In this document: positions 15,764-47,787 of the stretch, piece by piece
Position numbering within the stretch: position 1 is the first letter of the stretch
How the letters are laid out: the number at the start of each line of letters is the position of its first letter
Translations under genes and position numbers: made by a program
The notes under the pieces: model-generated
What the model saw: only the letters and a program-made list of their open reading frames with translations
Databases searched by the model: none
Told to the model about the DNA's origin: nothing
Assembly (NCBI GenBank): GCA_002897935.1
Contig: BDTA01000046.1
Coordinates: 17,934-81,933, forward strand
Direction of reading: 5' to 3'
Length of the DNA stretch: 64,000 nucleotides
DNA from: a bacterium BMS3Abin08
Lineage (GTDB): Bacteria; Nitrospirota; Thermodesulfovibrionia; Thermodesulfovibrionales; JdFR-85

Positions 15764-16861
15764 ATGAGCCTGACAGGTAAATTAGAAGACCTCGGCCTTG
15801 CCGATATCTTTCAGATACTGAGTATCGGAAAGAAAACAGGGTCGCTGTTGGTCCGGGGAAAGGATATCCGTGCAGGGGTGATACTTAAAAGGGGGCTTGT
15901 CGTAAAGGCCGAAGCCAACATCCTCGACGGTGATATCGGAGATGACCTCCTCAAGGCCGGCCTTATCGACGAAGCAGGCTTACAGCTTGCCCGAAACATA
16001 AAGACCGACCTTCCGGAGAAGAGTATCGCCCGGGTGTTGCTGGAACTCGACTCGGTCAAAAAGGAATCAATAGACAGGATTGTCAAGAAGAGGATTGAAC
16101 AGGTGGTGTACCACCTCCTGCTTCTTGAAGAAGGCGACTTCAGTTTTGAACCCGATGAACTGGAGTTAAGACTGCCCGACCTGAAGGACCTGGGCTGGGT
16201 GGTTTCAAAGGGGCTCAGCCCTGAATACCTCCTTATGGAAGGAGCGAGGACCTACGACGAAACACACAAATTCGAAGAGGTCCTCAAAGAGGAACTCTCA
16301 GAGGAAGAAACCGGACCGGAGTGGTTTGAATGCAGCCAGCCCGAGTTCCCGAGGGAGATCTCATCACTGAGGGGATTGACCCAGGAACTCAGGCTTCCCG
16401 AGACCCCTTCGGAGATCTCTCTTTTGATCCTCCGGTTTGCAAGCGATATCTTTCAGAGGGCCGTACTATTTATAATGAATGATGAGATTCTCACAGGTTT
16501 CGGACAATTCGGACTTGATCTCGAGCAGGCTGACGAGAGGGTCCGTGAAATAGCGCTCCCAATCGAAGACAGCCCCTATTTCTCCAGGATAGTCAATGAT
16601 GGCAGGCCATTCAAAGGAGAGCTTGAGAAAGAACCCTTGACGGAGTTATTCATCGGTGAAATTGGCGGGAACTGGCCTGTAGAGGTGGTTTTTTACCCGA
16701 TTATTGCCGAAAATCGTGTTGTTGCGTTACTCTATTGTGACAATCAGCCACCGGGAGAACCGATTGGGGAAACCCCGGGGCTGGAGATCTTCGTAAACCA
16801 GGCGGGCCTTGCCCTTGAGAAGGCGATACTAAAACAAAAATTAGCCGAAAGGGGTGAATAA
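15764..16861 (+). CDS. DUF4388 (PATAN-like) N-terminal domain protein with GAF-like C-terminal domain
   Basis: The N-terminus GKLEDLGLADIFQILSIGKKTGSLLV matches the DUF4388 signature as I remember it. An acidic linker follows. The C-terminal roughly 150 aa look GAF-like. Confidence 0.7.
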   Translation: MSLTGKLEDLGLADIFQILSIGKKTGSLLVRGKDIRAGVILKRGLVVKAEANILDGDIGDDLLKAGLIDEAGLQLARNIKTDLPEKSIARVLLELDSVKKESIDRIVKKRIEQVVYHLLLLEEGDFSFEPDELELRLPDLKDLGWVVSKGLSPEYLLMEGARTYDETHKFEEVLKEELSEEETGPEWFECSQPEFPREISSLRGLTQELRLPETPSEISLLILRFASDIFQRAVLFIMNDEILTGFGQFGLDLEQADERVREIALPIEDSPYFSRIVNDGRPFKGELEKEPLTELFIGEIGGNWPVEVVFYPIIAENRVVALLYCDNQPPGEPIGETPGLEIFVNQAGLALEKAILKQKLAERGE

Positions 16862-16863
16862 CA

Positions 16864-17235
16864 GTGAAAAGGATCCTCATTGTTGAAGATTCCGATTCAA
16901 CAAGATCCATGATAAGGACAATGGTTGAGGATTTGGGGGAGGAATACCTTGTTTTTGACACGGGAAACGGTTTTGAGGCGTTAAAGTTACTTCCCACTGA
17001 AGATTTCAACATGATCATCACGGACATTAACATGCCCGATATCAACGGACTTGAACTGATAAACTTCATAAAGACAAATCCGAGATACAGGGACATCCCC
17101 CTGATCATCGTAAGTACGGAGAGGTCGGAAGAAGACCGCAACAGGGGACTTGCCCTTGGAGCCGACGCCTACATCACAAAACCCTTTAAGCCTGAGGAAC
17201 TCCAGGAAACGGTTAAACAAATAATTCAAAAATGA
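16864..17235 (+). CDS. cheY: CheY-like single-domain response regulator
   Basis: 123 aa, GTG start. VEDSDS, TDINMPDINGL, and ITKPF (conserved Lys). Confidence 0.9.
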   Translation: MKRILIVEDSDSTRSMIRTMVEDLGEEYLVFDTGNGFEALKLLPTEDFNMIITDINMPDINGLELINFIKTNPRYRDIPLIIVSTERSEEDRNRGLALGADAYITKPFKPEELQETVKQIIQK

Positions 17236-19190
17236 GTTCAACAAACAAAGAGTTTATTTCAGAAGCTGAAGACCTCCTTAATGAATCGAGGGAATGCCTC
17301 CTCGAGATACAGGATGGTTTTCCGGAACAATACAACCCTGACACACTCAATGCCTTATTCAGATCCATGCATACCCTGAAGGGGATCTCCGGACTTTACG
17401 GGCATGAAGGACTTAAAGACCTGAGTCACGAACTTGAAGGACTGCTTGACGAACTCCGTCTTGGCAGGATCGACTTGTCGGAGGATCTCATAAACTTCCT
17501 CTTCCATAACATTGACATAGTGAGGAACATGGTATCGGTGGCTTCTGAAGAAAAGGACACCGACGTCTCCTCCTGTATCCGGGAGATTGAGAGGTTCAAA
17601 AATACTGCGGGGATGTCCTCCGGCGAGGCCCCCTTAAGTGAAATAGTCGGGGAGGAAATTCTCAGGGTCTTATCCGAATATGAAGAGCACCGCTTAAGAA
17701 CAAACGTAAAGGATAAAAAGGGCATATTTCTTATCTACACCGTCTTCTCCCTCTCTGAATTCGACAAAGGGCTCTCCAAGCTCACCGGGACCCTGAAGAA
17801 AGACGGGGAACTCATCTCGACCCTCCCCACATCAGAGGGCATCCCGGAGGGCTCCATAGGCTTCAAACTCCTCTTTGCATCTGAAAAAGACCTGCACTAT
17901 CTAAGGGATAAAACCGGTCTGGTAATCGAGGAGATTTATAGCTGCAAACCCTCCACTGTACAGCCTGTCACTCAGGAGGAGACACTCAGAAGCGTCTCCT
18001 CAACCGTCAGGGTGGATATCGAAAAACTCGACAGGATCCTCAACACCATAGGCAAGCTGAACCTTACCAAGGGAGCCATAAGCAGGGTCGAGGAGGAACT
18101 GATCGAGACGTATGGTCACTCACACCTTGTGTTTGATATGCACAGGGTGATACAGAACTTTGACAGGCGACTCAAGGAACTCCAGGATGACGTCCTCCAG
18201 ATAAGGATGGTACCCGTAGGGCAGATATTCTCGAGGCTGGGACAGATTATCAGAAGATACTCAAAGGGATTGAAAAAAACCGTCGAGTTAAAGACCTTTG
18301 GCGAGGATACGGAGATTGACAAGTTCATTGCCGAGGAGATTGCCGACCCCCTGATGCATATTGTGAGAAATGCCCTTGATCACGGGATAGAAACCCCGGA
18401 GGAGCGCGCGTCTAAAGGAAAACCTCAAACCGCTCAGATCAAGCTGAGTGCATTCCCGAAGGGGAATCACGTTATTGTTGAGGTTGAAGACGACGGGCGT
18501 GGAATAGACCCTTCAAGGATAAAAGAGAAAGCAGATGCCCTCGGGCTCGTTTCCAGGCAGGATGAGCTTGATAAAAGCGAGATAATAAACTTCATTTTCC
18601 TGCCAGGCTTCACCACCAGCGAAACCATTACCGATGTCTCAGGCAGGGGCGTAGGCATGGATGTGGTTAAAGAGAAGATATCATCAATCGGTGGTTTCGT
18701 TGATGTTTCCTCGGAGATGGACGTGTTTACCCGCTTCTCACTGACTATACCCATTACCCTTGCAATCATTAAGTCCCTTTTAATACGGTCGGGAAGCCAC
18801 AACTTCGCCCTGCCCCTCACATCCATATCGGAGACCCTGCTTGTGAAGAGGACCGACATCCAGAGCATTGAAGGCAACATGATCTACAACCTCAGGGGAG
18901 AACTTCTCCCCACCATATCCCTTGCAGGGCTGTTTGACTTACGGACTGCGGACTCTGAAGAAAAATACATAGTTGTCGCAGGGTATGGTGAACGCAGAGT
19001 GGGCATTATTGTGGATGCGCTCATCGGGAGCCAGGATATGGTCATAAAATCACTCGGCGACTACTTCAGGAACTTCAAGGGATTTACAGGAGCTGCCGAA
19101 GTAGGCAAAAACGAAGTGATCCTCGTTATCGATGTTGAGGCGATCATGGAGGAAACGCTTAAGAGGTACCGGGGGTTGGCCCATGTATAG
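17232..19190 (+). CDS. cheA: Chemotaxis histidine kinase CheA
   Basis: 652 aa. Hpt domain (FRSMHTLKG), dimerisation domain, HATPase (HIVRNALDHGIE, DDGRGID, GRGVGMD) and a C-terminal CheW-like P5 domain. Confidence 0.95.
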   Translation: MSSTNKEFISEAEDLLNESRECLLEIQDGFPEQYNPDTLNALFRSMHTLKGISGLYGHEGLKDLSHELEGLLDELRLGRIDLSEDLINFLFHNIDIVRNMVSVASEEKDTDVSSCIREIERFKNTAGMSSGEAPLSEIVGEEILRVLSEYEEHRLRTNVKDKKGIFLIYTVFSLSEFDKGLSKLTGTLKKDGELISTLPTSEGIPEGSIGFKLLFASEKDLHYLRDKTGLVIEEIYSCKPSTVQPVTQEETLRSVSSTVRVDIEKLDRILNTIGKLNLTKGAISRVEEELIETYGHSHLVFDMHRVIQNFDRRLKELQDDVLQIRMVPVGQIFSRLGQIIRRYSKGLKKTVELKTFGEDTEIDKFIAEEIADPLMHIVRNALDHGIETPEERASKGKPQTAQIKLSAFPKGNHVIVEVEDDGRGIDPSRIKEKADALGLVSRQDELDKSEIINFIFLPGFTTSETITDVSGRGVGMDVVKEKISSIGGFVDVSSEMDVFTRFSLTIPITLAIIKSLLIRSGSHNFALPLTSISETLLVKRTDIQSIEGNMIYNLRGELLPTISLAGLFDLRTADSEEKYIVVAGYGERRVGIIVDALIGSQDMVIKSLGDYFRNFKGFTGAAEVGKNEVILVIDVEAIMEETLKRYRGLAHV

Positions 19191-19995
19191 GGACTTTTTT
19201 TCACTCAAGGACAGACCCTTCAGCAAGACCCCCGACCCGAGGTTCCTCTTTATGAGCAAGGCTCATGAAGAGGCGCTCGCAAGACTCCAGTATGCTGTTG
19301 AGGAAAGAGAGATCGTTCTCCTGACGGGTGAGATCGGCTGTGGCAAGACCACACTTACAAGGGCCCTGATGGATTGCCTTGATGAGAGCTACAGGGTTAT
19401 CCTTATACTTAATCCCCGGCTCACTGCGAACCAGTTCCTCAGGTCCATTGCAAAAAGGATGGAGATAACCATCCCCTCCGGTTACAAGGATGACCTCCTT
19501 GAAGCGATTTACCAGAAGGTCTACAACGATTATGAAAAGGGGATAACGCCCGTAATCATCATCGATGAGGCCCAGCTTATTCCAAAAAAGGATGCCTTTG
19601 AAGAAATCCGTCTTCTTACCAACTTTCAACTTGACGATACAAATCTTATAAGCCTCATACTCGTTGCTCAGCCCGATATCCGGAGGAGGCTGAGACACAG
19701 GGCATATGCCCCTTTAAGGCAGAGAATCGGACTCTTCTATCACATAGGGGCACTTGATGAGAAGGAAACCACAGACTACGTCGGACATAGATTAAAGACC
19801 TCGGGAAGGGGATCACGGCTCTTTACGGAAAGGGCTCTGAAGGTAATATTCAGATATTCCGGCGGAATACCCCGGGTTATCAACAGTATCGCCACTTCTG
19901 CGCTCCTTGATGCCTTTTCAAAGGACCAGGAGATCATCGATGAAGAGAACATTATTGATGCGGTAAGGGAGCTTGGATATAATGGATATAGCTAA
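19183..19995 (+). CDS. ExeA/GspA/MshM-like AAA+ ATPase (AAA_22 type)
   Basis: I place the start at ATG 19183, which overlaps the cheA stop by 8 nt. FSLKDRPFSKTPDPRFLFMSKAHEEALARLQY is the ExeA/MshM N-terminal signature. Walker A GEIGCGKTT, Walker B IIIDEAQ. Confidence 0.8.
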   Translation: MYRDFFSLKDRPFSKTPDPRFLFMSKAHEEALARLQYAVEEREIVLLTGEIGCGKTTLTRALMDCLDESYRVILILNPRLTANQFLRSIAKRMEITIPSGYKDDLLEAIYQKVYNDYEKGITPVIIIDEAQLIPKKDAFEEIRLLTNFQLDDTNLISLILVAQPDIRRRLRHRAYAPLRQRIGLFYHIGALDEKETTDYVGHRLKTSGRGSRLFTERALKVIFRYSGGIPRVINSIATSALLDAFSKDQEIIDEENIIDAVRELGYNGYS

Positions 19996-20695
19996 AGTCA
20001 GAAAAAAGGCAAGGAAGAAAAAAGAGACGAAAAACAAAGGCGGCAAGGCATCAAGGAAAAATGAGAGCGCCGTCAAGTCTCCTGAAACCGGACTTGCCGG
20101 GGCAGAAGAGATACGCGATGAGTCAACAGGGACCGGGAGACCTGAAGAACAAGCGGACCAGGAGCCACGGAAAGGCATCCCGGCTTCCGTGGAGTTGCTC
20201 TCTTTTCAGCTTGGGTCGGAGTGCTACGCCTTTCACATGAACGATGTTCAGGAGATAATCAATCTCTATAACCTGACCCCTGTACCCACGGGACCTGAAC
20301 ACCTGTGCGGCTTAATATCCTTAAGGGGAAGGATAATCCCCGTGCTGGACCTGACAAAGCTCCTTAAGCCGGACAGTTCAACCCTGGATAACGGCACCCT
20401 GCGGAAATTATCGAAAAACAGATTGCCAACCAGGAGAAAGGAGAAAGTAATCGTTGCAAAGGGGGGAAGAGGTCCGATCGGGGTCTTAACCGACCAGGTG
20501 GTTGATGTTATAAGGGTATCGGAAGACTCGCTCAACGAGCCACCCACTCATCTCACTGAATCAGAGGTAAGGTTTATTGAGAGTGTAAGCATCCATAGCG
20601 GCAGATTCATAACCGTACTAAAAAGCGATGCAGCGCTTTTTGTATTTGAAGACAATTTTGAAGACAATAAAGAAGAGGAGCATCCGCATTCTTGA
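19973..20695 (+). CDS. cheW: CheW-domain coupling protein with about 70-aa charged N-terminal extension
   Basis: CheW fold (LLSFQLGSECYAFHMNDVQEI...GLISLRGRIIPVLDL). Lys-rich then acidic N-terminus. Overlaps the ATPase gene by 23 nt. Confidence 0.88.
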   Translation: MDIMDIAKVRKKARKKKETKNKGGKASRKNESAVKSPETGLAGAEEIRDESTGTGRPEEQADQEPRKGIPASVELLSFQLGSECYAFHMNDVQEIINLYNLTPVPTGPEHLCGLISLRGRIIPVLDLTKLLKPDSSTLDNGTLRKLSKNRLPTRRKEKVIVAKGGRGPIGVLTDQVVDVIRVSEDSLNEPPTHLTESEVRFIESVSIHSGRFITVLKSDAALFVFEDNFEDNKEEEHPHS

Positions 20696-20966: not shown

Positions 20967-23819
20967 ATGGGAACACTTGAAAAGAAGATTCTGGGGGCAG
21001 TAGTGCTTGTAATTGTTACAGGGTCTGTTTTTGCCGTCACCATGGTTTATTTTATGCAGAAAAAGAGCATATATGAAACCGCGCAGGAGAAGATGTTTGA
21101 AACTGCAAACGTTATCAGCAAAAGCCTGAAAAGAACAATGCTCGAAGGGAAGTCGGACATTACCAGGGCAATGTCCAACGATTTCAAGACCCTGAAAGGA
21201 ATTGAGAATATAACCATACTGAACCATGAGGGAAGAGAGGCCTTCAACAAGACTGCTCCTTCAAAGGAATCAGAGATTGTTAAAAGATTTGCTGCTGATC
21301 TGTCACCTTTTTCGATTATAAAAAACAACCGGATGTTGATTTACAGACCCCTCGAGAACTCTCCTGCGTGCCAGAAATGTCACTTGGTAAAAAGTCCTTT
21401 TCTCGGTGTTGTAAAGATCTCCATGTCACTCCGTGACGAGCAGAGCAAGATCGTAAGGATGGCTATGTTCAATATCCTGGCAACAATATCAGCGATTTTC
21501 ATACTCTCCTTTATAATCTGGATACTCATGAGGAAGATTATTATCAATCCCATCAGGAAGATAGAAGGAGCAGCGACTCTCCTTGCACAGGGGGACCTGA
21601 CCTTCAGAACCGACATAGCTGCCGATGATGAGATCGGCCAGGCAAGTTCCGCCCTTCAGGGCGCCCTGCAGTCAATATCATCGATACTTCAGAGGGTCAA
21701 GGATATCACCAGACGCGTCTCAAAGATTTCAACGGAGGTGGAAACTGAATCGAGAGACCTCGTTGAGACAACAAAAACCGAGACAGAGGCGATAGAGAAC
21801 ATATCAAGTTCCATTGAAGAACTCAATGCCTCGATCTCTGAGATAAGTGAAAGCACAGACGGTCTTGCAGTGTCATCTGAAGAGATGGCATCTGCAATCG
21901 AGGAGATGTCTGCCAGTATATTTCAGATTGCCCAGAACAGTAATGAGCTCTTTGAATCGGTTGAATCCAGTTCCTCCTCCATTGAAGAACTGACATCCTC
22001 AATCAAAGAGGTTGCTTCAAGTGCGGACGGTCTCCTGAATTCGACCGACGATACACTCTCAACCATTGAGGAGATTACCGCTTCAATAAGAGAAGTCGAG
22101 GTAAATACCAAGGAGTCCGCCAGGCTGAGTGAAAGGGTTATGACCGAGGCGTCAACATACGGTAAGGATGCCATTGAAAAGACGATAGAGGGAATGGAAA
22201 GGATAAAGATCTCAGTCGAGACCACCGCGGAGTACATAAAGAGACTGGGAGGCAGATCTGAAGAAATTGGAAAGATCCTCACGGTAATAGATGAAATCAC
22301 AGACCAGACCACCCTCCTCGCTCTTAATGCCGCCATACTTGCAGCGCAGGCCGGTGAACACGGCAAGGGCTTCTCCGTGGTAGCCGATGAGATCAAGGAT
22401 CTCGCTGAACGCACATCCTTCTCCACCCAGGAGATCTCAACGCTGATCCATACCGTCCAGAAAGAGGTCGCTGACGCAGTGTATGCAATGAACCTCGGAT
22501 TTGAGGCGGTTACCGGGGGGCTCGGTCTCTCAAAAAACGCATCCGGTGCGCTGGAGAAAATAATTGAAAGCGCCAGGCTTTCTTCCGATATGTCGACTGC
22601 CATAGAACACTCCACATCGGAACAATCCGAGGCTGCAAGGTTCGTTGCTGAATCAATGGAGAAGGTAAGGAACATGGTAAGCCAGATTGCAAAGGCAACT
22701 GCAGAGCAGTCAAGGGGCATGTCCCTCCTTATGAATGCAGCAGAACGCATAAGGAGTATTGCAACACAGGTCAAGACTGCAACAGAGGAACAGTCTCAAC
22801 AGAGCAAGCTCATACGCCAGAGCACGGAGGTTGTATCCGAAAAGAGCCAGCACATAGCAAGCGCACTCAACGAACAGAAAATGGGATCAGAGCAGATCAG
22901 GCATTCAATAAGGAACATCTCTGATATTCCTGCAAAGAACAGGAATATCTCCTTCAAGGTAAATAACGCCCTCAGGACACTCGTGAAGGATACCGAGCTT
23001 ATTGTGACAGAGATGGAGAAGTTCAGCTTCACACCTGTCTCTCATAGTGAAAAGACAACAAGGTTCGGCGTCATTCCCCTCGAGAGCCCCGCCGAGATGC
23101 ACCGGAGATTCAGCCCCCTCTCCGATTATCTCGGCAGAAAACTGGGTAAAAAGGTCGAGCTCAAGGTTGGTGTGGACTTCCAGGGCGCTATCCAGGATAT
23201 AGGCAACGGCGTGACCCAGCTATGCTTCATGACCCCGTCAACCTATATCAAGGCCAGAAGGGATTACAACGTAAGGGCGCTGGTAAAGGCGCTGAATAAC
23301 GGAAAGCCCTACCATCACTCCGTTATCATAGCACGCTCCGGCAGTTCCATCGCAGGTCTCAAAGACCTCAAGGGCAAGTCCTTCTGTTTCGGCGATCCTG
23401 ACTCAACCTCATCTCACATCGTACCGAGGTTTATGCTTCTTCAGGAAGGGGTGGACATCTCGGACCTGCTCTTTTACAACTACCTTGGTCACCATGACGA
23501 TGTCGCGGAGGCGGTCCTTTCAGGTGAATATGATGCAGGTGCCGTCATGGAGTTGACCGCCGAAAAATACAAGGAGCGGGGCCTGAAGTATATCAAGTTC
23601 TCAGAGGAGATTCCCGAGTTCAACGTATGTGTATCAAGGGATCTGCCTGAAAACGAGGTTCAGATGATTAAATCGGCCTTCCTGTCCCTTAAGGACACCG
23701 ACACTGAAGGGCTCTCCATCCTTAAATCAATAAATGAACATTACACAGGCTTTATTGAGACATCCGACGAAGACTATCAAAAGATCCGTGAAATGATGTC
23801 ACAAATACAACTGATCTGA
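20967..23819 (+). CDS. Methyl-accepting chemotaxis protein: 2 TM, CxxCH periplasmic domain, HAMP, signalling domain of about 64 heptads, C-terminal PhnD-like substrate-binding domain
   Basis: 950 aa, AAGGAGG RBS. TM helices at about residues 8-30 and 166-188. CQKCH at 21369-21383. Signalling tip [27 protein letters not shown]. The last roughly 250 aa ([11 protein letters not shown]...[16 protein letters not shown]...) look like a phosphonate/phosphate ABC binding protein. Confidence 0.88.
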
Positions 23820-23954
23820 GGAGGCAACCAATGGTAAAAGGAATTTCACTTTTAGTTTCATATGCTGCATGTCGGTTCATTGACTTTATCAGACATCCCG
23901 CGGGGCTGGAAATAATCAGGATGAATAATGCCCTGTCATCCGGTGGGAACTGAG

Positions 23955-25958
23955 ATGACTATCGAAAAGAGTCTCTCAACAAGGTTTATATACAGGATCC
24001 TGATAATTCTCTTCGTTGGACAGTCCCTGATCTGGGCATGGTCCTTCTACCGTGAAAAGACGACCCTCGAAGACTCCCTCAACAACGTGCTATCCCTGTC
24101 GGGTGGTATAATAAGCAACATAGCTGCAACCGCCCTTGTCAGCTCAGATCATACATATCTTGAACGGATAATCGATGATATCTTGAAGAATGAAGACATA
24201 ATCTCCGTAGAGATTCTGGATGCGGACGGGAAGAGACTCATCAAAAAGAGTCACGAAAGCACCGGGACTGCCTACAAAATATCCGAATTTCCCATTCGGT
24301 CCGGCACCGACGTAATAGGCAAGGTCAGGATAAGATACTCCGTTAGAAGGATAAAGGCAAACCTCGCCGGTCATCTCATCACCTCCATGATGCTCCAGAT
24401 GGTTGTCTTCATAGGTCTCATTTTTCTTATTGCCCTGTTCTTTAAACGTGATATCGGTGGACGCATAAGGGAGATGAGCAGGGTTATCGAGAAGATCACC
24501 CTTGGTGACCTGTCCCAAAGCATCGGCATCGAGGATAAAACGGAAATCGGAACAATAGCCCGTGGTATCGACTTCCTTATAACGAGACTGAAGGGTTACA
24601 TAAGAAAATTAAAGGATATCTCAAGGAATGTATCGGCGGCCATGAGCCAACTCAACCTGACCTTCAAGAACGTGACCAACAGTGTAAACAACCAGCAAAA
24701 ATCCCTTGAAGATGTCTCACTGTCCCTCAGAAATGCATCCAAGTCACAACTACGGATACATAAAAACACGGACACACTCCTTTCCCTTTCAAACGACAAT
24801 GTCTCTGCTCTCCTGGAATTCAAGGCTACCTCGGAAGAGATAGCCGCTGCTGCCGAAAGTCTTCAGCGCAATATTAACGACTCCTACTCGACCACTACCG
24901 AGCTTACCCAGTCATCACATGAAGTCGCCTCTCTTACAACGGAGGTATCCTCGGCTATGCAGGAGGCATCTGCCTCTGCAGATGAGATAAATGCGACGGT
25001 AAAGGAAATCGAACGCATCTCTCGGGAGTCGGCGGAACTGAGTTTCCTTACAACGGAAACCGTATCCGGGAAGGGGATGCTCTCGATTGTTGAAGCAGTT
25101 GAAAGGATGGAACAGATCGAGGCATCCGTAACTGAACTCAAGCAATCGATTGAGAGACTGGGAGGAATGTCCAAGGACATCGAGAAGATCCTCTCCGTCA
25201 TCAGGGATATTACGGAACAGACGGGGCTTTTGAGTCTGAACGCTCAAATTCTTGCGGTTCAGGCCGGGGAATACGGAAAGAGCTTTTCGATAGTGGCATC
25301 CGAGATGAAGACGCTGTCCGACAGGACCGCGTCCTCGACCCGGGAGATAGCTGGAATCGTTTCAACGCTCAAGAGAGAAATCCAGACGGTGGTAAATGGA
25401 ACCAATGAGACCTTTACCATGGTAGAGAAGGGAAGCGAAGCGGTAATGAATACAGGAGAGGCGCTTCGCGAGATCCTGCACTCCTCACAACGTTCGAGCG
25501 AGATCGCACAGAGTATAAAACGCGCATCGATTGAGCAGACGCGGGGACTTGAGTTGATTGTGAAGGCTATTGAACATATCAAAAAAATGATTTTTAAGGT
25601 AAGCAGGGCCACCGAGGAACAGGAAAAAGGCATTTCGTACCTTCTTGAGAGCGTCTCATCCATCAAGGAATCCATGGAGATCACAAAGAAGGCCACGGAC
25701 GAACAGGCGAAGAGCACAAAGTTTATCACCGACAATATAGAATTAGCAAATGAAAAAACCGCTGAAATAACAACGGCATCCTCTGAACAACAGAAGATAA
25801 ATGAGCACATAACGAGTCTCCTGCAGTCTGTAATGAATCTGGGTAAGAATACCGCAAGGGATGTCAAAGAGGTCTCGCTGTTCATATCATCGCTCCATGC
25901 GGAGGTGGAAGAACTCAGGAAGGAAATGGATCACTTCAGAACCGAAACAGGGCAATGA
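23955..25958 (+). CDS. Methyl-accepting chemotaxis protein (2 TM, small periplasmic domain, HAMP, signalling domain of about 64 heptads)
   Basis: The ORF opens at 23928, and ATG 23955 (MTIEKS) is the likelier start. Tip LLSLNAQILAVQAGEYGKSFSIVASEM. The stop overlaps the next cheW start. Confidence 0.9.
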   Translation: MTIEKSLSTRFIYRILIILFVGQSLIWAWSFYREKTTLEDSLNNVLSLSGGIISNIAATALVSSDHTYLERIIDDILKNEDIISVEILDADGKRLIKKSHESTGTAYKISEFPIRSGTDVIGKVRIRYSVRRIKANLAGHLITSMMLQMVVFIGLIFLIALFFKRDIGGRIREMSRVIEKITLGDLSQSIGIEDKTEIGTIARGIDFLITRLKGYIRKLKDISRNVSAAMSQLNLTFKNVTNSVNNQQKSLEDVSLSLRNASKSQLRIHKNTDTLLSLSNDNVSALLEFKATSEEIAAAAESLQRNINDSYSTTTELTQSSHEVASLTTEVSSAMQEASASADEINATVKEIERISRESAELSFLTTETVSGKGMLSIVEAVERMEQIEASVTELKQSIERLGGMSKDIEKILSVIRDITEQTGLLSLNAQILAVQAGEYGKSFSIVASEMKTLSDRTASSTREIAGIVSTLKREIQTVVNGTNETFTMVEKGSEAVMNTGEALREILHSSQRSSEIAQSIKRASIEQTRGLELIVKAIEHIKKMIFKVSRATEEQEKGISYLLESVSSIKESMEITKKATDEQAKSTKFITDNIELANEKTAEITTASSEQQKINEHITSLLQSVMNLGKNTARDVKEVSLFISSLHAEVEELRKEMDHFRTETGQ

Positions 25959-26500
25959 AATATCTTGTTTTCTTTATAAAGGACGATTACTTCGGGATTG
26001 ATATCTTCAAGCTTGCGGAGGTCCTGAATCCTGTAAAACTCCACGCGGTTCCCGATGTACCCGAGTTTATTTCCGGGGTAATAAACCACAGGGGTGAGGT
26101 CATCCCCGTTGTTTCCATGCGAAGGCGTTTCGGCATCACGGAAGAGGCGGGGAAGGCGCGGATCGTAATACTGGGATTCGGTAAAGGAGAGAAAATCGGC
26201 CTCCTGGTTGACGGTGTCACGGAGATAGCGGAGATACCCCGGGAACGGATATCAAAACCGTCCAGCCTGTTCAAGGGATTCAGGCCGGAATTCATTGAGG
26301 GAATAGCAGAGATGGGGAATGAACGGATTATTATCATCATGGATATAGAGAGGGTGTTCTCAACCGAGGAAAAGGTGCTCCTTAAGGAATCGAAGAGGAA
26401 GGCTGAAGGTGGAAAATCCCCCACTAAAAAAACCGCAAAAAAGGGAGGCGGCCAAAAAAGACTGCTCAGGAGCGCCGGGGTAAATGTAAAAGATGAATAA
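25955..26500 (+). CDS. cheW: CheW coupling protein with Lys-rich C-terminal tail
   Basis: 181 aa. CheW fold (YLVFFIKDDYFGIDI...INHRGEVIPVV). Tail KRKAEGGKSPTKKTAKKGGGQKR. Confidence 0.9.
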   Translation: MKYLVFFIKDDYFGIDIFKLAEVLNPVKLHAVPDVPEFISGVINHRGEVIPVVSMRRRFGITEEAGKARIVILGFGKGEKIGLLVDGVTEIAEIPRERISKPSSLFKGFRPEFIEGIAEMGNERIIIIMDIERVFSTEEKVLLKESKRKAEGGKSPTKKTAKKGGGQKRLLRSAGVNVKDE

Positions 26501-28451
26501 CGAAAAGCTCAACAGGGATATAGAACTGAAAAGGTCCAGGATCTTCTCTCAGAGAGGACGATCCGAAGGACTGTCGGTAATAATCGACTCCTTCAAGGAT
26601 GAAAGCTGGAGGGTAAGGAAAACCGCGCTTGACGTACTTATGGATAATTACCCCGCAGAAGGCTATATCCGGGATCTAATTAACCTCCTCTACCTGGAAG
26701 ACAACGCCGGCGCGCGTAATACCGCCATCGAGGCATTAACAAGACTGGGGAAGAAGGGACTCCCCAACCTGATAAAGGCATTCGATACGGACAACCGGGA
26801 TGTCAGGAAGTTTATAATTGATGTCATCGGCATAATCGGCGGCACGGAAGTAACACATCTTCTGCTTAAGGCTATAAGGGACGAAGACGAAAACGTCCGG
26901 GCCTCCGCGGTTGAATATCTCGGGAAGTTGAGGGAACCCTCTGTAACTGATGCACTGATAAATATAATTGAAGAGGAAGACGTCTGGACTGCCTATCCGG
27001 CGGTAAACGCACTCGGGATGATAGGCGACAGAAAGGTTATTCCCTTCCTTATTAAATCACTCGGGAACAGGCCGCTGACCGAACCCGCCCTCCGTTCACT
27101 TTCAGCGTTTTCCGAGCCCGACACCCTGCAATACGTAATCCCTCTCCTTCGTGATCAGAGACGTTCGATACAGGAAGAGACGCTCAGAACCATCGAGAGA
27201 TACTATGAAAACGGTGTTTCCGAAGAATATATCTCTGAGCGGCTCGTGGAACTCGTCGGTGCCGATGCATTTGAAATCTGCCTGAAATACACAAGCCATA
27301 ATAATCCGGAAGTAAAAAAGGCTGCCATAATCACCCTGGGGCTGCTACATGACCACCGTGCCGTGATGCAACTTCTCGATCTTGCCGAAGATGAAAACCT
27401 CAGGGATATTGTAAAGAGGGCGCTTGTCTTCATGGGCAAGAAAGACCCCGGCCTGTTTCCTGAACTCCTTCATACTGTAACGCCTGAAAAGAGAAGACTC
27501 ATTGTTGACTCAATGGCTGACATAGGCGCACCCGGTTACATCGATATCTTTACGGGGCTCCTGCATGATCGTGATGGGCATGTGATAGTTCATGCCGTAC
27601 GCGGACTCGGACGAATCGGTGACAAAAAGGCCGTCGACAACCTGCTTTCGATCCTGGGACATCCTTATCCCGATGTTCAGGAAGCGCTGATCGGTTCCTT
27701 AACAAAGCTGAAGGACCGGATTGACCCCTCTCACCTCATGGACGGACTCCGTTCTGCAAATGAGGTGATACGGAGAAACTCTGTTACACTCCTTGGTGAA
27801 TTAAGATCTGAATATGCATTACAGGAGCTGAGCCTCACACTTGGAGACCCTTCAGTTGGTGTCAGGACGGCAGCCGTTACGGCCATTTCACGTATCAGAT
27901 GGAAGGACACCCTGAAGTATATAAAGATGGCCCTGAGCGATGAGTCACCAGAGGTAAGAGAGGTGGCAACGGGGTGCCTTGCCATCTTTGACAACGATGA
28001 AGCCCTTGAAGCACTGAGAGTAATGGCAAAGGATTCAGAAGGGTCCGTACGTGCTATGGCCGCACGGACTCTTTCTTCCATCAGGAATGAAGGGGCTGTT
28101 GAGACCCTTATAAATCTGCTTCATGACCGGAACGGCTTTGTCGTCACCCAGGCTATCGAATCATTGTCGGCATTTAACCACCCGTCTGCAAGGAAGGAGT
28201 TGCTCGGTTTACTCAACTTCCCCGACAGGGAAATTAAGAGGACCGCCATCATGGCGCTTTCTTCCTATTCCGGGGTGGAGGATGCAGTAAAACCCTTCCT
28301 GTTCAGCGAAGACTGGGCAACAAGGCTTGCGGCGGTCCAGGCGCTCTCAAGGATGGGGACCGAAAAGGCAAGGGAATGTCTCGAAGGGATTTACGATATT
28401 GAAGACGATCCCTCCGTGAAGAGGGAAATCGAGGACGGATTAGGTGTTTGA
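26493..28451 (+). CDS. HEAT-repeat (PBS-lyase-type) protein
   Basis: 652 aa. Repeated units of about 31 aa (D..VR..A...LG.....A...L) run along the whole length. Overlaps cheW (8 nt) and cheR (8 nt). Confidence 0.85.
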   Translation: MNNEKLNRDIELKRSRIFSQRGRSEGLSVIIDSFKDESWRVRKTALDVLMDNYPAEGYIRDLINLLYLEDNAGARNTAIEALTRLGKKGLPNLIKAFDTDNRDVRKFIIDVIGIIGGTEVTHLLLKAIRDEDENVRASAVEYLGKLREPSVTDALINIIEEEDVWTAYPAVNALGMIGDRKVIPFLIKSLGNRPLTEPALRSLSAFSEPDTLQYVIPLLRDQRRSIQEETLRTIERYYENGVSEEYISERLVELVGADAFEICLKYTSHNNPEVKKAAIITLGLLHDHRAVMQLLDLAEDENLRDIVKRALVFMGKKDPGLFPELLHTVTPEKRRLIVDSMADIGAPGYIDIFTGLLHDRDGHVIVHAVRGLGRIGDKKAVDNLLSILGHPYPDVQEALIGSLTKLKDRIDPSHLMDGLRSANEVIRRNSVTLLGELRSEYALQELSLTLGDPSVGVRTAAVTAISRIRWKDTLKYIKMALSDESPEVREVATGCLAIFDNDEALEALRVMAKDSEGSVRAMAARTLSSIRNEGAVETLINLLHDRNGFVVTQAIESLSAFNHPSARKELLGLLNFPDREIKRTAIMALSSYSGVEDAVKPFLFSEDWATRLAAVQALSRMGTEKARECLEGIYDIEDDPSVKREIEDGLGV

Positions 28452-29334
28452 AGGGGAAGAAACCATCAAGTTAAATGAAGATGCCTTTAGACTTCTCCGT
28501 GAACTCATCAGGGACTTCTCCGGCATCTATTTTGATAACAAATCGAGATCCCTCCTTGAGAGAAGACTTAACGGCCGTCTCAGGTCACATAATATAAAAA
28601 CCTTCCGGGACTATTACAGATACCTGCTGTATGACCGCAACAGGGACACCGAACTGTCCGAGATAATGGATATACTTACCGTCAATGAGACCTATTTTTT
28701 CAGGGAAAAAAACCAGCTCCGTGCCTTCTCGGAAGAGATACTGCCTGAGTTGAAAGAGAGGAATAGAAGAAAAAGGAAAATCAGGATCCTTTCGGCAGGA
28801 TGTTCTTCCGGCGAAGAGCCCTATACTATAGCAATGCTTATACTTGAGAGCAACCTCCTCTGGAACTGGGAAATCGACATAATAGGCTGTGACATAAACA
28901 GGGGGGTCCTGCAGACCGCAAGGAACGCTGTTTACAGGCAGAACTCTTTCCGCTGTACCGATGAATACTACCGGAAGAAATACTTTGTGACCGATAACGG
29001 CAACTCATACAGGATAAAGGACAACCTCAAGGGTCTTGTCCACTTCGGATATCTCAATCTCCTTGATGCCGGGAAGGTCCTCTTTCTCGGCACCATGGAT
29101 GTCGTCTTCTGCAGAAATGTCCTTATCTATTTCGATGGACCTTCGAGGAAAAGAGTCGTCGAAAGTTTTTATAATTTACTCCCGGAAGACGGATACCTTC
29201 TTCTGGGACATGCTGAATCACTCATAAATATCTCCACAGCCTTTTCATTAAAACAGCTTCAGCATGATCTTGTATATACCAAACCCGTTGCAACAGAAGG
29301 GGAGCCCCATAAGTTATACGGGCCTCCAACCTGA
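28444..29334 (+). CDS. cheR: Chemotaxis protein methyltransferase CheR
   Basis: 296 aa, GTG start. ETYFFRE and the SAM-binding ILSAGCSSGEEPYTIAM motif. Confidence 0.93.
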   Translation: MFEGEETIKLNEDAFRLLRELIRDFSGIYFDNKSRSLLERRLNGRLRSHNIKTFRDYYRYLLYDRNRDTELSEIMDILTVNETYFFREKNQLRAFSEEILPELKERNRRKRKIRILSAGCSSGEEPYTIAMLILESNLLWNWEIDIIGCDINRGVLQTARNAVYRQNSFRCTDEYYRKKYFVTDNGNSYRIKDNLKGLVHFGYLNLLDAGKVLFLGTMDVVFCRNVLIYFDGPSRKRVVESFYNLLPEDGYLLLGHAESLINISTAFSLKQLQHDLVYTKPVATEGEPHKLYGPPT

Positions 29335-29348
29335 GGAGTATTACAGTT

Positions 29349-30410
29349 ATGGATAAAAAGACAAAGGTTCTTGTTGTGGATGACTCCGCTTTCAGCAGAC
29401 AGGCAATAAAAAAGATGCTCTCTAAAGACCCGGCGATCGATGTTATTGCTGTTGCCGTTGACGGTATAGATGCCATTTCAAAAACACTCAGATACAGACC
29501 CGATATAATAACCCTTGATATCGAGATGCCCCACATGGATGGTTTCAGCTTTCTGAGATGGCTTACAAAGGAATGTCCCACGCCCGTTATTATGGTCAGT
29601 TCCCTCTCCAACAGCAGGACGGTTTTCAGGACACTGGAGATGGGTGCCGTCGACTTTATTGCAAAACCCACAAGACGTGCATCACCTGAGATTGAAAAGA
29701 TCGAGCAGGATTTGCTCAATAAGATCCACAGTATAAACCTCAACTCCCTCAAGAAGCTCAACAGGAACCTTGACAACCTCTACAGGAGAAAATCCCTGAA
29801 GACCCTGGATGCCCGTGAAACAACCGATCCGGGAGTAATTGCCATAGGCGCCTCCACAGGCGGGCCTCAGGCCCTTCAGCTAATCCTGACTTCCCTGCCC
29901 GAGGGGTTCCCACTGCCTGTTGTAATCAGCCAGCATATGCCGGGGGAATTCACGGGGGCGCTTGCAGCCAGACTTGACCAGCTCTCTTATATCAATGTAA
30001 AGGAAGCCGTGGAAGGAGATACCCTTGAGCCTTCAACTGCACTGATATGCCCCGGAGGACATCATATGCAGTTGAAAAAGAGCAGAAACAGGGTTCTTGT
30101 CAAGTTACTCGAGGCAGATGAATCCGACAGGTACGTACCTTCAGTCGACATCATGATGAAATCAGCAGCTGATATTTTTAAAAACAGGACACTTGGTGTT
30201 ATACTAACCGGAATGGGAAACGACGGAAAAGAGGGCATGAAGGAGATTTACGGAAAAGATGGCTTTACGGTTGCCGAGTCCGAGAAGACAGCGGTGGTTT
30301 TCGGTATGCCGCAGGAAGTGATCAAGGCGGGTTTTGCCAAGCGCATAATGCCGCTTAACAGCATACCTGCAGAGCTTAAGAGACGCGTTTTAAAAGAAAA
30401 CATTAAATGA
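29349..30410 (+). CDS. cheB: Protein-glutamate methylesterase CheB (receiver + esterase)
   Basis: 353 aa. VLVVDDS...TLDIEMPHMDG receiver domain. IGASTGGPQAL and TGMGNDG esterase motifs. Confidence 0.94.
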   Translation: MDKKTKVLVVDDSAFSRQAIKKMLSKDPAIDVIAVAVDGIDAISKTLRYRPDIITLDIEMPHMDGFSFLRWLTKECPTPVIMVSSLSNSRTVFRTLEMGAVDFIAKPTRRASPEIEKIEQDLLNKIHSINLNSLKKLNRNLDNLYRRKSLKTLDARETTDPGVIAIGASTGGPQALQLILTSLPEGFPLPVVISQHMPGEFTGALAARLDQLSYINVKEAVEGDTLEPSTALICPGGHHMQLKKSRNRVLVKLLEADESDRYVPSVDIMMKSAADIFKNRTLGVILTGMGNDGKEGMKEIYGKDGFTVAESEKTAVVFGMPQEVIKAGFAKRIMPLNSIPAELKRRVLKENIK

Positions 30411-30416
30411 AAAGCC

Positions 30417-31238
30417 ATGAAAGATGAGGGATCCATATTGAAAAAGGCCGAGGAGTTTTTACAGATCTTCAGGAAGGGTGAAGAGTTCACAAAAATCCTT
30501 CTTAAGGAGAACGAACGGCTCCGTTTCAGGGCTGCCAAACTGGAAGAAGAAATCGGCGGAAGTGCGAACGGGATACGTATAAAGAACTACGAGGAGAGGA
30601 TCAGCGTTCTTGAAAGAGAGCTTGCCTCTTACAAGGAGCATTTCAGGAAGGTGGAGGAGGAAAACAAGGATTTTGCACAGAGATATATCGAGGTGGAGGA
30701 GGAAAACAACAACCTCGCCAATCTCTATGTTGCAAGTTACCAGTTACATTCCACGCTGGATTATGACGAGGTGCTCAAGATAGTCCTTGAGATAATCATA
30801 AACCTGATCGGCGCTGAATCCTTTGCAATCATGCTTATCGATGAAAAAAACAAGCAGCTCATCGCGGTAGCAAGCGAAGGCCTGGATATCGGCACCATCC
30901 CGAACATAAACATGGGTGAGGGCATAATAGGTACGGTAGCCAGGGATGGAGAGGGATTTTTCTCTGAAAAGATGATCCATAGGGACGGGATTGATCCTGT
31001 TAACCCTATCGTCTGCATACCCCTGAAAATCAAGGAGCATGTAATCGGGGTAATCGCTTTTTACTCCTTTTTCATTCAGAAATCAGCCTTCTCTAATATT
31101 GACTATGAACTCTTCAATCTCCTTGCAGGTCATGCAGCAACCGCCATCTTCTCATCGCGCCTCTACACTCAGTCAGAGAGGAAGCTTACCACGATTCAGA
31201 GTTTCCTTGAACTTTTAAAAGAAAAACCCGGGAGATAA
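30417..31238 (+). CDS. Coiled-coil + GAF domain protein
   Basis: 273 aa. The N-terminal roughly 110 aa are heptad-rich (ERLRFRAAKLEEE...VEEENNNLANLY). A GAF-like domain follows (VLKIVLEIIINLIGAESFAIMLID...). Confidence 0.75.
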   Translation: MKDEGSILKKAEEFLQIFRKGEEFTKILLKENERLRFRAAKLEEEIGGSANGIRIKNYEERISVLERELASYKEHFRKVEEENKDFAQRYIEVEEENNNLANLYVASYQLHSTLDYDEVLKIVLEIIINLIGAESFAIMLIDEKNKQLIAVASEGLDIGTIPNINMGEGIIGTVARDGEGFFSEKMIHRDGIDPVNPIVCIPLKIKEHVIGVIAFYSFFIQKSAFSNIDYELFNLLAGHAATAIFSSRLYTQSERKLTTIQSFLELLKEKPGR

Positions 31239-43494: not shown

Positions 43495-43802
43495 TGCTCC
43501 GGGCAATTCCCGAAAAGAAAAGAATAACCGTATTTACTCCTGTGTTTCGTCATCCCTTCTTCGGCCGGGCCATAGCGCCACTGAGGCTTTAGCAGACAAC
43601 TCAACCCCGGCACCACTTTTCCCGTTAGATTCTTTGCCGGATCCTTAATGACAAGGCGCACTTTCTCTGGATTCCTTTACAGTCCGTCGCGGCAATGACC
43701 GATGGGTGTGTATTTCCCCTGATTTACCGGACAGCTGCGGTTGTATCTTGTTAGAAAACATCAAAAAATATTATGATATCAAATTAAATGAAAGGAGAAT
43801 TG

Positions 43803-45227
43803 ATGTCGGAAAAGAAAAAGACCCTTGTTGATTATGTCTGGGATTCCTTCGCATCGATCAAGCTCGCCGTTGTCCTCTTTGCACTTATTTCCCTTTCCTC
43901 GATCGTGGGAACCGTGCTTGAACAGGGAGCCGAACCTGAGAAAAACCTGATCGTTCTCAAGAGGATTTTTGGTGATTCCATTGCACCGGGTGCATACAGG
44001 TTCTTTGAATCGTTGGGGTTCATGGACATGTACCATTCCTGGTGGTTTGTCAGCTTTCTGGTGCTCTTTGCAGCCAATCTGATTATCTGTTCCCTCGACC
44101 GCCTCCCCCGGATTCTCAAGCTTGTACGTGAGCCTGCCAGGCCCATCAGGCCACAAATGGTGAAATCCTCATCCATTAAACGAAGTGTTACCTTGAAGGG
44201 CTCTCCTGAAGCATTAAAGGACTCCCTTCTTAAGCACCTGAAATCCTCCGGATTCAAGGCCCTTGACAGCCCCCTGGAAAACGGGGGCTACCAGTTGTAC
44301 TCCCAGAAGGGAAGCTGGACACGTCTCGGGGTTTATATAACACACCTAAGTATTCTTGTAATCCTCTCAGGAGCCGTAATCGGGATATTCTTCGGGTTCA
44401 GAGGTTTTCTCAACCTGCCGGAGGGATACACCTCAGATGTTGCCTATACAATGAACGGCCAGCCGCAGAAACTGGGATTTTCAGTGCGATGTGATGATTT
44501 TGACGTAGAGTTTTACGGCTCGTCTGAAATGCCCAAGGACTACAAGAGCTGGCTTTCAATTATTAAAAACGGACGGGTTGTGGTCAAGAAGATGATCGAG
44601 GTTAATAACCCCCTGAAGTTCGGAGGATATACCTTCTATCAGTCAAGTTATGGAATGATGCCAAACCCTCAGGGGTACTTTATTCTCAAGGTTACAGGTA
44701 AGAACAACGGGACCGAGACAGTCACCAAGAGACTTGGCGAATCATTCACGATCCCGGGCACCGACTTGATTGGAACAATCAAGAATTACAGCCCGGCCCT
44801 TGCAACCGATGCATCTGGAAAACCATACACATACTCGGATATGATGACCAACCCGGCAGCGTATATCGTATTTACGGAAAAGGGAAAAGAAAAATACTCG
44901 GGATGGGTTCTGAAGCGCTATCCGGAAACATGGAAGCTGCCGGACGGCAACATGGTAAAATTCATCGATTACTGGGGGGCTCAGTATACAGGACTACAGG
45001 TAAGAAAAGACCCCGGCGTCTGGTTGGTATATCTCGGTAGCATTATTATGGGCATAGGGCTATTTACCACCTTCTTCATGAACCATAAAAAACTGTGGGT
45101 CCTTGTAGAGAAAAACGGCAATAACAGCAACCTTACCATAGTGGGATCATCCAACAAGAACAGGGCGGCCATGGAAAAAAAGATCGAAAGGCTTGTTGGA
45201 AAACTCACCGACGGAGAGAAGAAGTGA
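43803..45227 (+). CDS. resB: Cytochrome c biogenesis protein ResB/Ccs1 (System II)
   Basis: AAAGGAG RBS before ATG 43803. N-terminus WDSFASIKLAVVLFALI, a large periplasmic domain, and a C-terminal TM. Precedes ccsA. Confidence 0.85.
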   Translation: MSEKKKTLVDYVWDSFASIKLAVVLFALISLSSIVGTVLEQGAEPEKNLIVLKRIFGDSIAPGAYRFFESLGFMDMYHSWWFVSFLVLFAANLIICSLDRLPRILKLVREPARPIRPQMVKSSSIKRSVTLKGSPEALKDSLLKHLKSSGFKALDSPLENGGYQLYSQKGSWTRLGVYITHLSILVILSGAVIGIFFGFRGFLNLPEGYTSDVAYTMNGQPQKLGFSVRCDDFDVEFYGSSEMPKDYKSWLSIIKNGRVVVKKMIEVNNPLKFGGYTFYQSSYGMMPNPQGYFILKVTGKNNGTETVTKRLGESFTIPGTDLIGTIKNYSPALATDASGKPYTYSDMMTNPAAYIVFTEKGKEKYSGWVLKRYPETWKLPDGNMVKFIDYWGAQYTGLQVRKDPGVWLVYLGSIIMGIGLFTTFFMNHKKLWVLVEKNGNNSNLTIVGSSNKNRAAMEKKIERLVGKLTDGEKK

Positions 45228-45254
45228 AAACGAACGTTCTTGGAGGAGGTTTAA

Positions 45255-46334: not shown

Positions 46335-46337
46335 TAC

Positions 46338-47786: not shown

Positions 47787-47787
47787 T

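Follow-up and report, generated by a model that had tools for sequence, protein, structure and literature searches.

A Nitrospirota chemoreceptor combining a heme-c-type periplasmic sensor with a predicted cytoplasmic PtxB/PhnD-like domain

Introduction

Signal input into chemoreceptors is understood almost wholly as entering the N-terminal helix of the signalling bundle via the second transmembrane helix and the HAMP domain. Here, a methyl-accepting chemotaxis protein (MCP) of 950 residues is described, which carries a heme-c-type sensor on the periplasmic side and, at the end of its C-terminal helix, a domain related to the binding proteins PtxB and PhnD. The gene lies in a stretch of 64,000 nucleotides from bacterium BMS3Abin08, a member of the Nitrospirota (Thermodesulfovibrionia; Thermodesulfovibrionales; JdFR-85; assembly GCA_002897935.1, contig BDTA01000046.1, positions 17,934 to 81,933 of the forward strand). 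This whole stretch is called the window in the following, and coordinates refer to it.

The closest described relatives of the N-terminal half are the Geobacter receptors GSU0582 and GSU0935 (PDB 3B47 and 3B42). Like the window receptor, these are MCPs with two transmembrane helices, between which a PAS-like domain (about 130 residues) lies in the periplasm, followed by HAMP and MCPsignal. They also share a CxxCH motif just ahead of the second transmembrane helix and an exchangeable axial Met on the N-terminal helix. In both proteins Met60 is the axial ligand, and its binding or release accompanies reduction, oxidation and the binding of CO or NO (PMC8396549). DcrA is a further precedent for a heme-c periplasmic sensor on an MCP. 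Signalling bundles of the 64H class, also named 40+24H, are known from Geobacter and Desulfuromonas.

For the C-terminal half, precedent comes from signalling systems which use the family PF12974 as ligand-binding element. These are the sensor kinases TtrS and ThsS, responding to tetrathionate and thiosulfate, and AioX, which acts together with AioS in arsenite sensing.

The analysis presented here makes it fairly probable that the window protein is a dual-input MCP of class 64H, in which a periplasmic heme-c input is joined by a cytoplasmic, PtxB/PhnD-like ligand-sensing input on the C-terminal helix. A dual-input function had been proposed in an initial annotation of the window, and it gains support. 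The fallback offered there, that the domain serves in docking, came out as less likely.

Results

The receptor gene occupies positions 20967-23819 (950 codons and the stop), and a ribosome-binding site of the AGGAGG type is found immediately upstream. The gene and all its parts lie on the forward strand. The reading frame contains no internal stop, as the initial annotation had stated. Its extent is supported by the list of open reading frames (ORFs) and, as detailed below, by an identical protein in three assemblies and by collinear orthologues. A hydropathy scan of the whole protein revealed two hydrophobic segments only, residues 4-31 (20976-21059; kept in the orthologues) and residues 161-196 (21447-21554). 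They correspond to the transmembrane helices that had been placed near residues 8-30 and 166-188. The CQKCH motif at residues 135-139 (21369-21383) precedes the second helix, and a HAMP domain follows at residues 188-237 (21528-21677; Pfam PF00672, 26.8 bits for a cut-off of 25), also in the order initially annotated.

Past residue 240 no cryptic transmembrane helix was detected, the highest 19-residue Kyte-Doolittle mean being 0.99, far under transmembrane values. The claim that no hydrophobic segment precedes the C-terminal domain is borne out, and the concern that a hidden helix might put this domain outside the cell does not apply. Because it follows the CheA/CheW-binding bundle without any membrane crossing in between, the predicted topology requires the C-terminal domain to be cytoplasmic. 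All sequence features listed in the initial annotation were confirmed.

The C-terminal domain comprises residues 699-950 (23061-23816) and is a class II binding-protein domain of the PtxB/PhnD type. The family Phosphonate-bd (PF12974) was matched at residues 700-937 along profile positions 1-242 of 242, with an E-value of 5e-65 and 219.7 bits against a cut-off of 27. NCBIfam TIGR01098 reached 155.9 bits (cut-off 112.05). The PhnD equivalog TIGR03431 stayed below its cut-off (150.9 vs 261.1 bits). A secondary Pfam match to NMT1/THI5 (PF09084) scored 23.2 bits for a cut-off of 20.5, and LysR_substrate gave no match in the Pfam scan of the receptor. By sequence, the nearest solved relative is PtxB (5O2J, 4e-30), followed by ArrX, AioX, PhnD and HtxB.

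An AlphaFold model of the domain computed from 106 sequences had a mean predicted local distance difference test score (pLDDT) of 96.2 and a predicted TM-score (pTM) of 0.91. With Foldseek, this model was superposed on closed, liganded PtxB (5JVB, 5O2J, 5O37) with TM-scores of 0.88-0.90 and a root-mean-square deviation (rmsd) of 1.9 Å; for apo-open PtxB the TM-score was about 0.6. Thi5 structures were distant fold matches (TM-scores of about 0.67-0.70). The reading of the last 250 residues or so, from about residue 697, as a PhnD-family domain is strongly supported at the levels of both sequence and fold. Ligands of the structural relatives in the Foldseek list include arsenate, arsenite, hypophosphite, ATP (XAC2383), glycerol-1-phosphate and sterols. 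Since the fold family binds such varied ligands, the family name does not fix the ligand of the receptor domain.

The fusion of this domain to the receptor was examined in other assemblies and genomes. An identical 950-residue protein is called in GCA_002897875.1 (BDTP01000066.1) and in the Logan assemblies of DRR093004 and SRR7787010. An orthologue scan with one genome per species returned 14 related loci, and the metagenome-assembled genomes (MAGs) containing them are all of Nitrospirota or Thermodesulfovibrio. At 13 of these loci the gene is a single ORF of 950-968 residues, collinear with the window receptor at 54-73% identity. These orthologues show the same two transmembrane helices and have CxxCH at residues 135-153. 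Their tip Glu lies at 464-482 and is followed by 485-486 residues. The synteny of the operon around the receptor is present in all related loci. In the remaining locus (L013, a draft MAG), the same gene is found in frameshifted pieces.

A sequencing or assembly error which joins two genes, as had been feared in the form of a hidden stop, or a domain that is really exported to the periplasm, has a probability close to nil. The gene in pieces at L013 is all that was found in its favour, and these pieces, broken up by frameshifts, belong to one and the same gene and keep its order. The artefact is contradicted by the identical ORF in three assemblies, the 13 collinear orthologues and dozens of remoter full-length relatives, as well as by the lack of any hydrophobic segment beyond residue 196. 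Coding constraint, expressed as the ratio of nonsynonymous to synonymous substitution rates (dN/dS; Nei-Gojobori method, unsaturated pairs), extends across the junction of bundle and domain. Given the agreement of the three assemblies and the full synteny of the che operon around the 13 collinear orthologues, an artefactual fusion is excluded and counts as refuted.

The distribution of the domain was investigated with phmmer in 1.84 billion cluster representatives. At E<=1e-30, 233 proteins were obtained, the best matches being long proteins which carry the domain at their very end. The C-terminal module is present on at least 27 cluster representatives (50% identity), which fall into two length classes of receptors with varied N-terminal sensors. 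In the 64H group, the distance from tip to end is constant at about 485 residues (about 483-499, covering the 64H C-terminal arm and the domain), and arm and domain recur together as a single module. The N-terminus of this group is variable: a heme-c sensor is found in eight representatives, Cache_3-Cache_2 in P0123 (1085 residues), sCache_3 in P0140 and a 4HB_MCP-like domain in P0138, and others have small periplasmic domains without family assignment. P0124, P0132 and P0136 (about 830 residues), also of the 64H group, display a bare transmembrane hairpin. The second class (about 610-700 residues; P0152, P0156, P0157, P0160 and others) combines the same C-terminal domain with an N-terminal transmembrane hairpin and a shorter bundle, each arm of which measures about 140 residues. 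It was found in MAGs labelled Nitrospirota, Nitrospiraceae and Bacillota. In the hairpin-only receptors, the PhnD-like domain is the sole recognisable sensory element. The lack of any other recognisable sensor in these proteins is the strongest argument for considering it as an input domain.

In a neighbour-joining tree, the 64H group formed a single clade. The relation to the shorter group and the monophyly of all fused domains are beyond the resolution of this tree, in which several 'free' sequences are fragments of fused proteins. P0182 may represent an independent fusion. Three representatives, P0065 (470 residues), P0137 (742 residues) and P0141 (670 residues), had been taken as soluble receptors showing a cytoplasmic function. 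They were withdrawn as probably truncated gene calls, since their 90%-identity clusters hold members of 641 and 947 residues, and two of the three are located on short contigs (about 2.5 kb). A separate group which does not belong to the MCPs (P0037-P0042 and P0145-P0259, about 530-590 residues) contains two PhnD-like domains in tandem behind an N-terminal signal or transmembrane segment. The C-terminus of P0037, ...SCGLGCHPNIQL, contains a CxxCH motif.

The pocket of the domain was compared with that of PtxB, where the ligand is contacted by S124, T125, S126, H155, Y94, a capping Tyr and the Asp latch D16 (PMC5700983). S124, T125 and S126 (numbering of Ps_PtxB) align with S813, T814 and S815 of the receptor. 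These are part of the motif S813-T814-S815-S816-H817 (23403-23417), the predicted oxyanion-binding Ser-Thr-Ser motif, which is invariant in the 14 orthologues. H155 corresponds to H843 in L840-G-H-H843-D-D (23484-23501), and this residue is invariant in the 27 fused representatives. F885 in P883-E-F885-N-V-C888 (23613-23630) takes the place of the capping Tyr, L705 that of the Asp latch and H783 that of Y94. The determinants of phosphite specificity in PtxB, i.e. the capping Tyr, the Asp latch and Tyr94, are consequently not present in the receptor.

H842, H843, D844, F885, L705, H784 and C888 are also invariant in the 14 orthologues, and H783 is a His in 13 of them. Across the 27 fused representatives, S813, T814, H843, Y760 and an aromatic cap are conserved. 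C888 is nearly specific to the fused lineage (23/27, compared with 8/84 of the free-standing homologues), and together with L705 it is characteristic of this lineage, C888 especially. The pocket signature of the fused lineage can be summarised as L705, F885, C888 and His783/784. A hydrophobic N-terminus, as expected of exported proteins, was found in 73 of the 84 free-standing homologues.

Conservation was calculated as mean major-residue frequency. It amounts to 0.80 in the domain and 0.79-0.86 in the coiled-coil arms, and the linker between them shows the lowest value of the protein, 0.54. The dN/dS values are 0.045-0.07 for the domain (0.23 in one pair), 0.03-0.06 for the bundle, 0.09-0.18 for the sensor and 0.3-0.96 for the linker. 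On these values the domain is under the same strong purifying selection as the signalling core, with the predicted oxyanion-binding residues intact.

The linker itself (residues 686-698; 23022-23060) was recognised from its low conservation, its dN/dS values and low pLDDT. In the 64H group the helix ends with a conserved E-[ML]-E-[RK]-F and is separated from the domain by a variable linker, 9-14 residues in length. In the shorter class the helix continues into strand 1 with a linker of about zero residues, a junction that implies mechanical coupling.

The signalling bundle was delineated from MCPsignal (PF00015; residues 395-569, 1.6e-40, 139.2 bits for a cut-off of 34.6) and from heptad and motif scans. 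The tip is formed by Glu464 in AGEHGKGF (22356-22358), a position kept in the orthologues. The N-terminal arm spans residues 240-464 (21684-22358) and the C-terminal arm residues 465-688 (22359-23030), the latter ending in a conserved TEMEKF according to the junction alignment. Counting 224 residues back from E464 leads to residue 240, the end of HAMP, and 224 residues forward to residue 688, about ten residues ahead of strand 1. This gives 32+32 heptads and agrees with the roughly 223 residues on each side of the tip in the initial annotation. The 64H assignment was made by length and heptad pattern alone, without the class hidden Markov models of Alexander and Zhulin.

Methylation-type motifs EExx[AT]S were found at residues 284, 312, 340, 368 and 552. 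Residues 280-373 (21804-22085) show a period of 28 residues, or four heptads, with near-identical motifs of the type SSSIEEL[NT][AS]S at 284, 312, 340 and 368. This periodicity in the N-terminal arm looks like an internal duplication, which may be a route by which the '40+24H' bundle has grown.

The periplasmic domain (residues 32-160; 21060-21446) was assigned to the PAS-like heme-c sensors of the GSU0582/GSU0935 type by profile comparison, structure prediction and relatives carrying PF21563 (Mcp40H-20_sensor). On the window protein alone, this Pfam family matched residues 49-155 with 21.1 bits, below the threshold of 27. As a single sequence, the sensor matched the 3B42 and 3B47 structures weakly (E about 0.07, identity about 16-20%). 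With a profile of 14 orthologues, 3B47 was reached at E=7.1e-7 and 3B42 at 1.7e-3. The N-terminal 245 residues as single query returned one protein only, so that a profile search was needed for finding further relatives. Sensor relatives at 34-42% identity carry PF21563.

The AlphaFold2 model of the sensor (pLDDT 84.5) gave 3B42 and 3B47 as the top three PDB matches in Foldseek, with E-values of 7.6e-7 to 5.7e-6. The next matches were the PAS/Cache-like sensors of WalK, TlpB, CitA and Tll0287. The high rmsd of the model to 3B42 and 3B47 is expected, as the crystal forms are domain-swapped dimers. M58 (21138-21140), C135, C138 and H139 align with Met60, Cys140, Cys143 and His144, CQKCH being the counterpart of CQSCH in 3B42 and 3B47. 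All four residues are invariant in the 14 orthologues, and so is the motif RTMLEG which contains M58, the counterpart of the distal axial ligand.

Further downstream, the window encodes ResB and CcsA/ResC of System II cytochrome c maturation (43788-46334, forward strand; PF05140 2.8e-93, PF01578 4.4e-45), the machinery required for attaching heme to a periplasmic CxxCH. The periplasmic half is best regarded as a new but ordinary member of the described heme-c sensor family, and attachment of heme to CQKCH is predicted. A heme-type signal on the outside, as initially proposed, is supported by the homology to the Geobacter heme-c MCPs, by CxxCH and axial Met being both aligned and invariant, and by the ResB/CcsA genes. 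The latter are directly followed by genes for a HAMP histidine kinase and a sigma-54-dependent response regulator (43788-49441).

The receptor gene is part of a chemosensory operon. Its upstream part (15764-20695, forward strand; assigned by Pfam and by synteny in L004-L017) encodes a DUF4388/PatA_N protein, CheY, CheA (17232-19190), an AAA_22 ATPase and CheW. The downstream part (23928-31238, forward strand; assigned by Pfam, length and synteny) encodes a second 64H MCP (MCP2), CheW, a HEAT-repeat protein, CheR, CheB and a GAF protein, and is followed by a CheY-like gene. The operon contains with CheA, two CheW, CheR and CheB the partners of an MCP. MCP2 (23928-25958) has its tip Glu at about residue 448 and 228 residues after the tip, i.e. 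the same 64H length, and no C-terminal domain. Its periplasmic region resembles CHASE8 below threshold (23.5 vs 27 bits). MCP2 and the fused receptor could be located in one array, and MCP2 is the natural comparator without the C-terminal domain. Genes for phosphonate, phosphite or arsenic functions or for ABC transporters were absent from the window ORFs scanned. The neighbours of the receptor gene are all chemosensory, with no ABC permease or ATPase among them.

Several accessory genes in the operon are unusual. The P-loop ATPase of the AAA_22 family (ExeA/MshM-like, 287 residues; 19132-19995) is encoded between cheA and cheW, its gene overlapping the 3' end of cheA, and is kept in most related loci, with no match in L009 or L010. 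The others are the DUF4388/PatA_N protein (15764-16861), a protein of 652 residues with about ten HEAT repeats (26493-28451) and the GAF protein (30417-31238). A HEAT-repeat partner is known in Myxococcus Che7. The accessory genes suggest a chemosensory output that is not purely flagellar. Between the two MCP genes of the window an ORF of 40 residues is called at about 23831-23953, and small ORFs of 32-42 residues are also found 3' of the fused receptor genes in L018 and L019. In L006 (5158-6025), about 870 extra bases separate the fused receptor from MCP2, compared with gaps of about 25-135 bases in other loci.

Discussion

From these results a working model of the dual-input receptor can be proposed. 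Exchange of the axial Met would let the heme c in the PAS-like domain respond to redox state or to a diatomic gas, and this signal would be transmitted via the second transmembrane helix and HAMP to the N-terminal helix of the bundle. The second input would come from the Venus-flytrap domain, which is attached where the C-terminal helix ends. In a hairpin of 64 heptads, this site adjoins HAMP under the membrane. The domain may bind a small cytoplasmic oxyanion through its Ser-Thr-Ser/His core. S813, T814, S815, H843 and H783 could hold three ligand oxygens, while F885, L705 and C888 could face a fourth position that is small or apolar. Closure of the lobes, or a different pairing of the domains within the receptor dimer, would then shift the packing of the C-terminal helix near HAMP and bias the control of CheA in parallel with the heme signal. 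In such a scheme the receptor would weigh a redox cue from outside against a metabolic cue from inside, and its adaptation would take place at the EExx[AT]S sites through the CheR and CheB of the operon.

That the domain binds a ligand at all, what this ligand is and how binding is coupled to the bundle are points which we infer, and the most probable ligand is a small oxyanion of the XO3 type. The small anion inside the cell that the initial annotation had assumed is supported by the invariant STS-H core, by strong purifying selection and by relatives whose only candidate sensor is this domain. Candidates which all fit the crude description of the pocket are phosphite, phosphate, methylphosphonate, sulfite and thiosulfate. 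Two points make sulfur oxyanions attractive: the thiosulfate and tetrathionate sensors ThsS and TtrS use PF12974 domains, and the carriers of the receptor are related to the sulfate-reducing Thermodesulfovibrio. In one lineage, the neighbourhood of P0156 (short class, Nitrospirota MAG; L020 9961-16773) contains a Tll0287-like (heme-c PAS) histidine kinase, a sigma-54 regulator, two Usp proteins, a PF03601 transporter and a rhodanese. The rhodanese and the transporter are suggestive of a sulfur chemistry context, in this single lineage only. In a wider sense, it is possible, at slightly less than even chances, that a widespread and uncharacterised class of receptors steers by the cytoplasmic level of a small oxyanion (e.g. 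sulfite, thiosulfate, phosphite or phosphate), which is combined here with an external heme-based redox reading.

A number of observations weigh against ligand sensing by the domain. Two determinants of specificity in PtxB, the Asp latch and the capping Tyr, are replaced by L705 and F885, respectively, and Y94 is replaced by a His. In Te_PtxB, changing Tyr to Phe abolished detectable methylphosphonate binding (PMC5700983). With the equivalents of latch, cap and Y94 replaced, the pocket is not a phosphite pocket of the known kind, and its ligand may be quite different, or there may be none. The linker of the 64H group, with its 9-14 poorly conserved residues under relaxed selection, suits a loose tether better than rigid coupling. 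The seemingly soluble members P0137, P0141 and P0065 are probably truncated gene calls, and no metabolic neighbour shared by the divergent members P0156, P0157 and P0124 was found.

A structural or docking role of the domain stays alive for two of these reasons, the hydrophobic residues in place of the PtxB latch and cap and the flexibility of the linker in the 64H group. In this case the domain would clamp the membrane-proximal part of the 64H bundle, pair receptors within the array, or replace the tether by recruiting CheR, CheB, the HEAT protein or the AAA_22 ATPase. It is placed exactly where a CheR/CheB tether is usually found, and DUF4388, AAA_22, HEAT and GAF proteins are available as possible partners. 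The statement of the initial annotation that receptor C-termini normally end in such a short tether was nevertheless too general, as a tether is carried by a minority of MCPs (cf. the discussion in PMC2577667). A pure scaffold would not require the invariant ligand-contact core of S813, T814, S815 and H843. The same domain is furthermore carried by orphan receptors of other phyla without such accessory genes nearby and by the shorter receptor class, which needs no clamp, and MCP2 of the same operon does without it at equal 64H length. Docking as the function of the domain is judged unlikely, though it is the more serious of the two alternatives considered here.

The other alternative, to which an even lower probability is assigned, is that the domain binds a ligand and sets the abundance, localisation or methylation of the receptor according to a slow nutrient status such as cytoplasmic phosphate, or that it is catalytic like NMT1/THI5. 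Cytoplasmic phosphate is always present at high concentration, and a phosphate-type site would tend to saturate there, which is in favour of a slow function. A catalytic one could be read from the secondary PF09084 match and from Thi5 among the distant fold matches. However, PF12974 is by far the stronger family match (219.7 vs 23.2 bits), and the best structural matches are binding proteins of transport and sensing, with TM-scores of about 0.9 compared with about 0.67-0.70 for Thi5. The direct transition from helix to strand in the shorter class points to conformational signalling. Sensing of a cytoplasmic ligand in addition to the heme signal remains the preferred reading.

If this reading is correct, the receptor would contain the first domain of the PhnD/PtxB family shown to work intracellularly, and it would reveal a new route for feeding a signal into an MCP from its C-terminal end. 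Receptors with a domain on the C-terminal helix are a natural test case for the entry of a second signal into the four-helix bundle, from its other strand, and for the summation of two inputs. It would also mean that a binding-protein family thought to be strictly extracytoplasmic is used inside the cell. The pocket signature of the fused lineage possibly corresponds to a new ligand specificity of PF12974, with potential for biosensors. Fused receptors of 600-1085 residues (P0125, P0156, P0157, P0182, P0326 and others) are labelled by NCBI and JGI as 'phosphate/phosphite/phosphonate ABC transporter substrate-binding protein'. Such mislabelling inflates the phosphonate-uptake potential deduced from metagenomes of Nitrospirota and other anaerobes.

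Compared with known systems, the window receptor differs from GSU0582 and GSU0935, which are named Mcp40H-type in the title of the Pfam family and lack a C-terminal domain, in its 64H bundle and its PhnD-like domain. With PtxB, PhnD and HtxB (5O2J, 5JVB, 3P7I), this domain shares PF12974/TIGR01098, the class II fold, the Ser-Thr-Ser and His residues and the aromatic cap. In contrast to these proteins it has no signal peptide, is predicted to be cytoplasmic, is covalently fused to a receptor and has no ABC permease or ATPase nearby. Relative to PtxB, Leu stands for the Asp latch, Phe for the capping Tyr and His for Y94, and a lineage-specific Cys is added. As in TtrS/ThsS and AioX, a PF12974 domain would serve signal transduction and not transport. 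In those systems, however, the domain is periplasmic, and it is either N-terminal in the kinase or a free protein docking on the kinase, whereas it is C-terminal on an MCP and predicted to be cytoplasmic here.

Sensory domains in the cytoplasm at the C-terminus of MCPs are described for Helicobacter TlpD (CZB, zinc-binding) and Azospirillum Tlp1 (PilZ, c-di-GMP) (PMC3604760, PMC13001251, PMC8262984). Both have an extra sensory domain past the C-terminal MCP helix for intracellular input, as proposed here, but the domains are small (about 100 residues) and unrelated in fold and ligand, and neither is a two-lobed binding protein of the transporter type. In the searchable literature no paper was found that mentions MCPsignal together with Phosphonate-bd; an earlier mention in reviews or in InterPro architecture tables is possible, and the architecture is presumably visible in domain-architecture databases. 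The C-terminal half is conserved and fairly widespread, and as a variation on the design of chemoreceptors it is apparently undescribed.

The class II periplasmic-binding-protein fold is used as a cytoplasmic small-molecule sensor in the effector domains of LysR-type regulators. These belong to a different family, have DNA binding as output and show no detectable sequence relationship to the receptor domain. Each ingredient of the window receptor has a precedent, and the new combination is apparently that of a PtxB/PhnD-family domain placed inside the cell at the C-terminus of an MCP.

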